In this document: positions 11,701-14,700 of the stretch, in pieces | Numbering within the stretch: the first letter of the stretch is position 1 | Layout of the letters: each line of letters begins with the position of its first letter | NCBI GenBank assembly: GCA_951406725.2 | Contig: OX597836.1 | Span: forward strand, 13,640,001-13,704,000 | DNA: 64,000 nt | Origin: Octopus vulgaris | Lineage: Eukaryota | Direction: 5' to 3' | Made by a program: the position numbers and the translations under genes | The notes under the pieces: model-generated | What the model saw: the letters and a program-made list of their open reading frames with translations, nothing else | Told to the model about the DNA's origin: nothing | The model's database searches: none

Positions 11701-14700
11701 TGCCACGCAGTAGGACTGAACCCAAACCATGTAGTTATGAAACAAGCTTCTTAACCACACAATAACTGTAATATTTGGTGTCCTTCAGTTGTTCTCTGAA
11801 ACTTCAGACCGGTAGGTCCAACACCTGCTTATCCCAGTAGGCAGAAGGGATTAAGCTCCTGGAAATGTGTTCCAGGTGCCTGACCCGATTTGCAGCTGCG
11901 GAAAACATGTCTGACTTAAAGGCGTCCAAATCGCTTACTGTCGAGAAATCTCTGTAGATTTTCCCACCTCATCCAATGCTTTCACACGTGTCAGCATATC
12001 AACAGAGAAAATTCATATCTTATGAAGAGGCACTAATATGGAAACACACACACACACACTTTTGGTTTTTCGTTAAACATGCAGCCTTACTTTATATGAT
12101 CGTTATCGTATCCATTTACGGTTTTCTATCTAAGTTGATAAACAGTTCATATTTTATATATCATATTTTATATTTTATACTTTACCAAGGCTGTTTAGCA
12201 TGTTATATATTTTTATTTGTAGCACTTGTGACGCTGTATGTAGCCTAAAAAAACATTTTTTAACTATTAACGAACGCACAGCATTCGCTCAATCATGCAT
12301 GATATATTTTCGAGTTAATACACTTGTGACGCTGTATGTTGCCTTAGAAATATGTTTTTATCATTAGAAAACACACAGCGCTCACTCAATCATACATCAA
12401 AGGAGCACAGTATCAATTAATTTCACAGTTACAATATATCGTTTACGCGAGTTAGACCTCTCTTTTTTTCAAATCATTTTATAAGTTGTTTAGGTGTATA
12501 TTTATTTGAATTTATGTATACACACAAAAAAAGTAATTCATTATTTTGATATGTCACACACTCATACGCATGCACGTGTGTATGTATGTGTGCATATATA
12601 CATATAAATATATATATATATATATATATATATATATATATATATATATATATATATATATATGTACAAACACGCATATTAAGAAGTCGATTATCGCTTA
12701 TTTCACTAATTTTTGCATTAATATTCCTCTCTCTCACTCTCTCTCTCTCTCTCTCTCTCTTGCTCTATACACACGCACTTATATATACACACACATTTGT
12801 ATGTATGTATGAGTGTGCGCGCATGCGTAATATATCAAAATAAATCGTCTGACATCAGGACATTCAAAGTGCTTACTGTTGAGAAACATCAGTGGATGCT
12901 TTTACCCTCATTCAATCTGCTTATACACGTGTCAGCATATCAACAACCAGAGCAACCTCAGACTCTTTGCTGGGGAAACTGATATGGAAAACACGCCGCG
13001 CACGCATAGTTTTTCTACTTTAAAATATGGCCATACGTTACGATCTCTCTGACGAAGTGGGTATTGTAAGATGAGACCATGTTGTAGAAAAGTGATAAAT
13101 GCCAGAGTAGCCTTAGTCAGTTTATACGATTTAGTTCCTTCCTGTTGTAGATTACTCCAACCACCAGATCGAAATCTACGTGTCAGTCTTTCCATTTATC
13201 TACGTAACTGTATGCCTATCTAACTATGTGCGTACATGTATGTGTGAATGTATGTACATAGGGATTTCATATTCTCTGTTTCAGATGAACGCTGTCTACC
13301 AACACGGTTCTTTAGGAATGAAAATTGAAGTTGTCCTTAAAAGAATTGTTGTCTTGGAGGATCGGCAGGTAATTTATATGCTTTTTTTTTCCTTTTTCTA
13401 ATATCTCACTTTCTCTCTTTTTTTTTCTTCTTTCTTTATATGCATACATATATATACATTCATACACACACACACATACACACACTCACACACACGCATA
13501 CATATATATATATATATATATATAGTTATAATTACAGACAGTTTTATATGTAGCTATAACTATAACTGTAGTATATCAGTTATGTTTCCGACTCGTCAAA
13601 GCAAACTTCGCGAAGTGTTTACACTTATTGAACACCTCTGATCTTGCTTTTAAATACTCAAGTTTTATTAAGATTTACAACTATGAAAACTTTGTCAGAA
13701 TTACATAATCTACAGTTTTAATTCCTTTTTATACGCCTTGCGTATATCGAAGAGCCTCTATGTTGTATATACTGCGTTCTTTCAGTAGACAAACATAGTT
13801 GAATGGTTTGATTAATCTCCTCTTAACTCTTTGCATGAAGGAGAAATTCTCGTTGAAATACTGCAACTTAAATGTATCCTTCTCAGTTTCGACATAATGT
13901 TCACATTCGGTATCGAGGCTTACGAGATGTGTGGGGATGATCTTCGTATCATAAATAATCGCTTCGGCGTCGTTTAGATGGCATGCGAATTGTTTCTGCA
14001 CGAACAATTTACCACGCTTACTTCTATTTAGATTAATTGTGAGAAGTTTCGGTTTTTCTTTTGAAATATCGAAAATTCTACTATAGCTTACTTTTATGTT
14101 TTTTCTATTAAGTAATTTTCGATAACGATAATCACAGGGGAAATGCCTGTTCGTTAAAATTAAGAAATTCGAACAAATGCAAAGAAACACACACATATAA
14201 TATAAGTATAAGGTGTGTTGTGAGTATTCATAGAACACGTATCCTATATAAGCTCAACAAACAATTAAAGATGGAGAAGAGATGTTAAAAGTTTTATAAA
14301 ATTTTAATCCATGCATACGATCGTTTCAAATGGTAACACCAACATGTAAGAAACATAGGAAAAAATTAAACTAATTTTAATTATAATTAAATTAGTTTAA
14401 TTACAATGCAATGACCTAGTGGTTAGGGCAGCGGACTCGCGGTCGCAGGATCGCGGTTTCGATTCTCAGACCGGGCGTTGTGTGTGTTTATTGAGCGAAA
14501 ACACCTAAAAGCTCTACGAGGCTCCGGCAGGGGGTGGTGATCCCTGCTGTACTCTTTCACCACAATGGCGGTGCCCCAGCATGGCCACAGCTCAAGAGCT
14601 GAAACTGGAAAAACAAAACAAAAACAAACAAAATTACCATTCTCCTCAGTGCAAAAAAAAAGAATTCATCAGAAAGGTAGTATCAGAAGAATATTATGTT

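Follow-up and report, generated by a model that had tools for sequence, protein, structure and literature searches.

A type I hammerhead motif with an enlarged helix II, interrupted by a young SINE, in a likely inert Penelope-like remnant of Octopus vulgaris

Hammerhead motifs are already known from the pseudo-LTRs of Penelope elements, from Hydra-clade elements and in forms that carry long insertions (PMC7229834; PMC2950038; PMC2837043; bioRxiv 10.64898/2026.07.22.740005). Among the closest described systems are the Hydra-clade Penelope-like elements of Craig et al. 2021 (PMC8557442), which include Hydra-1_Obim of Octopus bimaculoides and for which the RWK, DKT, CxCX5C, CxxC and CxH motifs are given as clade marks (section 11 of that article). 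A dimer-type architecture has also been described for Penelope hammerheads (PMC6765202), and in an anole Penelope element cleavage was reported to be real, though unneeded for insertion in vitro (PMC11167929). The locus described here lies in a 64,000-nt stretch of Octopus vulgaris DNA (contig OX597836.1, positions 13,640,001 to 13,704,000; hereafter the window). We consider it highly probable that it represents the pseudo-LTR, truncated at its 5' end and likely inert, of an old Hydra-clade Penelope, bearing a type I hammerhead with an enlarged and branched helix II that has a SINE at its tip.

Inspection of the sequence located both hammerhead halves on the minus strand of the window between 14653 and 14312, where the original prediction had placed them. 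The motif begins with the 5' strand of stem I (TGCA, 4 bp; 14653-14650), delimited by paralog comparison, followed by the first half of the core, CUGAGGA (C3-A9; 14649-14643), and the 5' strand of the helix II basal stem (14642-14633). Beyond the loop are the 3' strand of the basal stem, with U at position 11.1 (14337-14328), the second half of the core, GAAA (14327-14324), the palindromic stem III (14323-14318), the GUA triplet with U16.1 at 14317 and A17 at 14316, and the 3' strand of stem I (14315-14312), all on the minus strand. The predicted cleavage point follows GUA, between 14316 and 14315. The type I hammerhead core (CUGAnGA / GAAA / UH) is present in this copy and is surrounded by three helices with helix I open, which is the type I layout. 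A descriptor permitting loops of up to 320 nt found this to be the sole motif in the window with at least nine stem II pairs, and no such motif arose in 300 block-wise dinucleotide shuffles of the window, which upholds the identification of a type I hammerhead at 14312..14653. The expectation that standard scans would overlook the motif was also borne out, as Rfam gave no match for the window at the gathering score and returned no hammerhead among 55 matches (E up to 1) from four loci with intact motifs of the same family.

The same prediction held that every core and stem position is preserved. This is correct for the core bases and for stem II, where 10 pairs are possible, with G·U at two of them (one being the basal 10.1-11.1 pair), but it does not extend to the identity of the basal pair, since the G10.1-C11.1 pair of the type I hammerhead is absent and G·U stands in its place. 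Across 41 copies sampled without the ribozyme as query, this pair was G-C in 29 and G·U in eight; the change in the window copy falls at a CpG, and some subfamilies have U throughout. Published Hydra hammerheads listed in File S2 of Craig et al. (PMC8557442) also include some with G·U or U·U as the basal stem II pair, so the basal G·U need not have killed the window ribozyme.

DNA searches with the two flanks of the SINE gave 632 and 154 first-look candidates (40 scored for each) and led to shared loci at which these flanks are neighbors, and a further search with the 3' part of the family gave 736 candidates. Copies containing both halves were uninterrupted in 75 of 79 cases. The original prediction was to be checked by finding uninterrupted paralogs that unite the two halves, and was to fall if the halves came from different repeat families; such paralogs exist in the hundreds, and the halves are parts of one family. 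The A9-G12 spacer of most intact copies measures 77-99 nt (about 88 nt), and the helix II domain is predicted to fold into a 12-bp stem closing a three-way junction that carries an AU hairpin and a 5-bp hairpin. Family comparison and folding place these branches in the window copy as an AU-rich hairpin at 14363-14402 and a second small hairpin at 14343-14357, both on the minus strand. The AT hairpin is thus family sequence and not part of the insert, as the helix II domain natively spans about 88 nt with two hairpins. Of the 297-nt loop, originally described as holding an AT hairpin and a SINE, both components are there, but the hairpin is native and only about 225 of the 297 bases are inserted. 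In the predicted family fold the core has no terminal loop II in its vicinity. Owing to the large native loop II, scans will miss intact copies too, and a canonical contact between loops I and II would not be expected.

In total, 68 distinct motif-spanning copies were gathered, of which 61 entered the covariation analysis after seven with large deletions or truncations were omitted. Stem II was paired in 93% of cells, with a U-A pair exchanged for C-G in 14 copies and a G-C pair for A-U in three, and with wobble exchanges at two further pairs. The covariation score of stem II exceeded 500 of 500 shuffles and all slid controls, while reflecting few independent subfamily events; doubly changed pairs showed no excess over shuffles (208 of 500). 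Stems I and III were paired in 86% and 92% of cells, respectively, and barely covaried. Stem III is a perfect palindrome, such that two copies of the 12-nt stretch are predicted to pair over 8 bp (-12 kcal/mol), and in folding it fails to form within the monomer (probability ≤0.06).

Without its SINE the window copy is about 335 nt long; by paralog comparison it occupies 14195-14753 on the minus strand, is 5'-truncated and ends at a TA run without a tail of about 115 nt. Truncation at the 5' end is general in the family, copies frequently come with an inverted partner, and the 3' end falls at either of two points some 115 nt apart, indicating an optional tail. Most copy ends adjoin TA-type microsatellites, which amounts to a (TA)n insertion preference. 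An endonuclease remnant upstream of a family copy at one locus was then used as query, and 20 wider regions were fetched, three of them chosen for a known family copy nearby. Family sequence occurred in 12 of the 20 regions, in position categories that overlap: 3' of reverse transcriptase-endonuclease remnants on the same strand in eight of 20 (five of the 17 regions taken without regard to a prior copy), and as an inverted 5' piece in five of 20. At one locus (L216) it formed a direct upstream repeat just before the ORF start. The sequence therefore has the arrangement of a pseudo-LTR, lying 3' of an ORF for reverse transcriptase plus a GIY-YIG-type endonuclease and being repeated 5' in direct or inverted orientation. 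Translation of the parent ORF pieces at L216 revealed the RWK, DKT, CxCX5C, CxxC and CxH motifs and a C-terminal endonuclease, and all parent-family ORF copies seen were broken. On this sequence evidence the repeat is assigned to an old Penelope-like element of the Hydra clade, as its 3' pseudo-LTR. Head-to-tail tandem hammerhead repeats, which define non-LTR retrozymes, did not occur in the family, whose copies are single or inverted.

Three other candidates for the origin of the repeat were set aside. One, a MITE reading based on the inverted pairs, was dropped when linkage to the ORF emerged. A decayed Hydra-like Penelope ORF fragment, covering the thumb to endonuclease region, adjoins the window copy (13597-14202, minus strand) and contains a 174-codon open stretch with 28-29% identity to the protein of a young element found elsewhere in the genome; it was rejected as the parent, having no DNA match to the parent family. 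That young element itself, with a 717-aa ORF (L081), was rejected on account of just 46-54 nt weak matches in older relatives. Pfam gave no match for either Penelope protein.

The inserted element is a very young, apparently tRNA-type SINE with an (AAAAC)n tail, which by copy comparison runs from 14408 to about 14632 on the plus strand and sits at the tip of the helix II stem. It lacks the first 6 or so nucleotides present in most sister copies, and belongs to a SINE with high copy number and a simple-repeat tail. Its head we take to be tRNA-like from box A/B patterns recognized by eye; ARAGORN found no tRNA in it. All 40 scored copies, the best 40 of 884 candidates, were identical over 78 nt, and 11 of 12 copies examined differed at 1-3 of 127 head bases. 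The window pseudo-LTR copy differs by about 6% from the majority of its nearest relatives, and the SINE is thus far younger than the copy that it interrupts, leaving little time since the split. There was no clear target-site duplication around the window SINE, and a 9-nt duplication seen by eye was rejected as the family's own internal repeat. A 114-letter contig of one DNA run (X1) matches 14318-14405 without difference, after which its last 26 letters do not run on into the SINE, and the break is the point where the uninterrupted family parts from the window. This suggests that a SINE-free allele is likely to exist; contigs of four DNA runs, aligned at 88%, were swamped by paralogs. The four split copies among the 79 comprise the window copy, two interrupted by related SINEs and one interrupted by another insert. 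Both of those with related SINEs (L203, about 1650-2070, and L044) carry the SINE antisense to the hammerhead, and the 16-nt target-site duplication in L203 contains a repeat of the first core half, which leaves a complete motif downstream.

The pseudo-LTR copy, its SINE and the ORF fragment are enclosed by a GT-AG intron of a plus-strand host gene (13369-14892), defined by contigs of three RNA-guessed runs from three studies that join 13368 to 14893. The two spliced exons of this expressed gene (13285-13368 and 14893-15040, plus strand) likely encode part of an ADAMTS-like metalloprotease, as suggested by weak PDB matches to ADAMTS (E 0.19-0.78); Pfam gave no match for the two exons. The hammerhead lies antisense within this intron, so that the host pre-mRNA does not contain it; the SINE, too, points away from the hammerhead's sense strand. 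Contigs of the RNA-guessed runs, which are strandless, included none covering the hammerhead, and no second copy of the family was present within the window. The antisense position in a spliced intron, together with the lack of a dimer partner, makes the copy likely to be inert.

A tree of the 68 copies was used to compare parsimony changes in the core and flank. On terminal branches, changes per non-CpG column were 3.0 for the core and 3.2 for the flank, in comparison to 0.2 and 0.97 on internal branches (Fisher p=0.03). The stems were also spared on internal branches (p=0.006), as were the core bases while N7 varied. Sparing of the core on internal and not on terminal branches indicates that master lineages kept the ribozyme and that dispersed copies did not. 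The core and all stems were kept in one of 41 copies obtained with flank queries and in six of all 68, and the exact 27-nt 3' half was kept at 16 sites genome-wide. In the window copy, mismatches were found at none of 46 ribozyme positions and at 17 of 272 elsewhere; the chance of zero is about 5%, with a Fisher p of 0.15, which leaves some room for selection on this copy. The intact look of its halves is explained by a divergence of only about 6%, by the recent arrival of the SINE outside the core, and by the choice of the copy for its intactness. The significance implied by preservation of every position is not supported, given the youth of the SINE, the neutral decay of dispersed copies, the basal G·U, the other split copies, the natively large loop II and the antisense orientation.

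This can be interpreted as follows. In the active parent, the substrate of the ribozyme would have been the tandem transcript of the element itself; as known Penelope hammerheads suggest, cleavage would have followed GUA and most likely taken place in a dimer held through the palindromic stem III. Selection kept the motif in master lineages while dispersed copies, that of the window included, decayed neutrally; the very young SINE entered the tip of the native helix II, and the window copy would be silent.

Alternatively, the family hammerhead may have been non-catalytic already in the parent, with the enlarged helix II acting as a structural or protein-binding RNA element. We regard this as unlikely, although stem I has just 4 bp, no terminal loop II lies near the core, core misfolding is predicted for the monomer, by 4-6 kcal/mol, and hammerhead mutants of the anole Penelope left in vitro insertion unaffected (PMC11167929). 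Such a role would not readily account for a core that was spared on internal branches while N7 varied, as in a catalytic core, or for a stem III that is a perfect 8-bp palindrome with predicted inter-copy pairing of -12 kcal/mol.

A very improbable explanation is that the split copy is itself an active discontinuous ribozyme, under selection, that cuts an antisense intron transcript with the SINE looped out. No core base is missing and stem II has its 10 pairs, the ribozyme has no mismatch in 46 positions (p=0.15 in comparison to elsewhere), and Clec2 mRNA hammerheads with large loop insertions are described as active (PMC2950038). Folding gave results on both sides. The minimum-energy fold of the bare 356-nt allele retains stems I and II with the SINE looped out, and with short flanks both stems form with a probability of about 0.9, but with 50-150 nt of flank the probability of stem II falls to ≤0.03. 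Two of the four intact copies folded with 100-nt flanks (four of eight were covered) also lose stem II, and flanked folding is for this reason a weak test that neither proves nor excludes activity. The remaining evidence is less favorable to an active split copy: it is antisense to a spliced host gene, stem III is absent in the monomer (≤0.06) and no partner copy lies in the window, the family as a whole decays neutrally, and the SINE arrived too recently for any post-split selection to show. Chance juxtaposition of two unrelated repeats has a negligible probability: the 75 of 79 copies in which the halves run on without a break refute it, and none of 300 shuffles gave the motif.

Having weighed these alternatives, we return to the decayed pseudo-LTR as our preferred reading and to its helix II. 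What is new is the oversized helix II of the family and not the split, as the split copy alone is an ordinary nested transposon insertion. No earlier account of the family, or of so long a helix II, was found in the open literature searched or in the examined parts of the Craig supplement. The spacer is more than three times the longest published Hydra one (26 nt, in the rows of the supplement considered), and two more Penelope-linked families in the genome, with spacers of 58 and 31 nt, have enlarged helices II.

Several other hammerheads with long helix II spacers were observed. A second type I hammerhead is present in the window at 6671-6765 (plus strand); its helix II spacer measures 58 nt and its stem I has 9 bp. 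The family of this motif is younger and high in copy number (3523 candidates, 93-97% identity among the best), and Hydra-like ORF remnants lie upstream on the same strand at six of 15 loci. The young Hydra-like Penelope element (L081 3095-5611, L082-L084, L091, L092) has intact 717-aa ORFs and thousands of candidates, and its pseudo-LTR hammerhead has a 31-nt helix II spacer and, in all copies seen, C for U at core position 4. A tandem array (L090 1-2483) consists of a 485-nt unit at 99.9% identity with a type I hammerhead in each unit, whose spacer is 68 nt, whose stem I is 8 bp and whose minimum-energy fold is the hammerhead itself (z -5.9). This array is likely a retrozyme and the best candidate for an active ribozyme with a long helix II. 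A loose scan also found a hammerhead-like core with a long spacer near 1904 of L082 (minus strand, 77 nt) and near 1406 of L088 (plus strand, 60 nt). The 3' end of Naiad_Ovul, as given in the supplement of PMC8557442, shows by eye a 6-bp inverted repeat followed by GAAAC, with a core-like word bearing one change before it; although its family is listed there as 'half core', the element may contain a variant hammerhead whose loop is longer.

As scans miss long helix II domains, the number of hammerheads in such genomes is being underestimated. Together with the intact copies, the filled allele provides a natural series on the capacity of helix II, which bears on the role of Penelope hammerheads. 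We tentatively suggest, as a possibility more doubtful than not, that Hydra-clade Penelopes of this lineage repeatedly enlarged helix II to 30-90 nt, partly branched, in a working ribozyme. If so, a natural class of hammerheads would escape both Rfam and descriptors with a loop limit, the tolerance of helix II would be such that even a SINE-split allele cleaves, and it would seem that some Penelope families reported as 'half core' carry whole ribozymes.

In comparison with the Hydra-clade elements, as described in PMC8557442, the family shares the C-terminal endonuclease with the same five motifs and the (TA)n insertion, the sense-strand type I hammerhead near the 3' end with a short stem I and a short palindromic stem III, and the direct and inverted pseudo-LTRs with an optional tail. 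It differs in its A9-G12 spacer of about 88 nt with a three-way junction, in contrast to a maximum of 26 nt among the Hydra entries of File S2, and in its long 3' UTR, longer ORF linker and tail of about 115 nt. Hydra-1_Obim, the sole octopus entry in that material, is a different family, as both protein and hammerhead differ. The minimal hammerheads of metazoan Penelope elements (Cervera and de la Pena 2014, PMC4209133) have in common with the family a longer helix II and a helix I of 4-5 bp, a palindromic helix III predicted to need a dimer, and an occurrence mostly as single, dispersed, truncated remnants with some inverted pairs; their helix II, however, has 7-8 bp and a small loop, whereas that of the family has 12 bp and two hairpins. 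Non-LTR retrozymes (PMC7229834; bioRxiv 10.64898/2026.07.22.740005) likewise place type I hammerheads in animal repeats and are kin to Penelope pseudo-LTRs, but form head-to-tail tandem arrays, whereas the family is dispersed and physically linked to an ORF. The mammalian Clec2 discontinuous hammerheads (Martick 2008, as summarized in the review PMC2950038) also have core halves hundreds of bases apart, with the insertion tolerated in loop 1 or 3 and not in helix II as in the window copy. The Clec2 motifs lie on the sense strand of an mRNA and are conserved and active, whereas the split motif of the window is antisense, recent and predicted from sequence.
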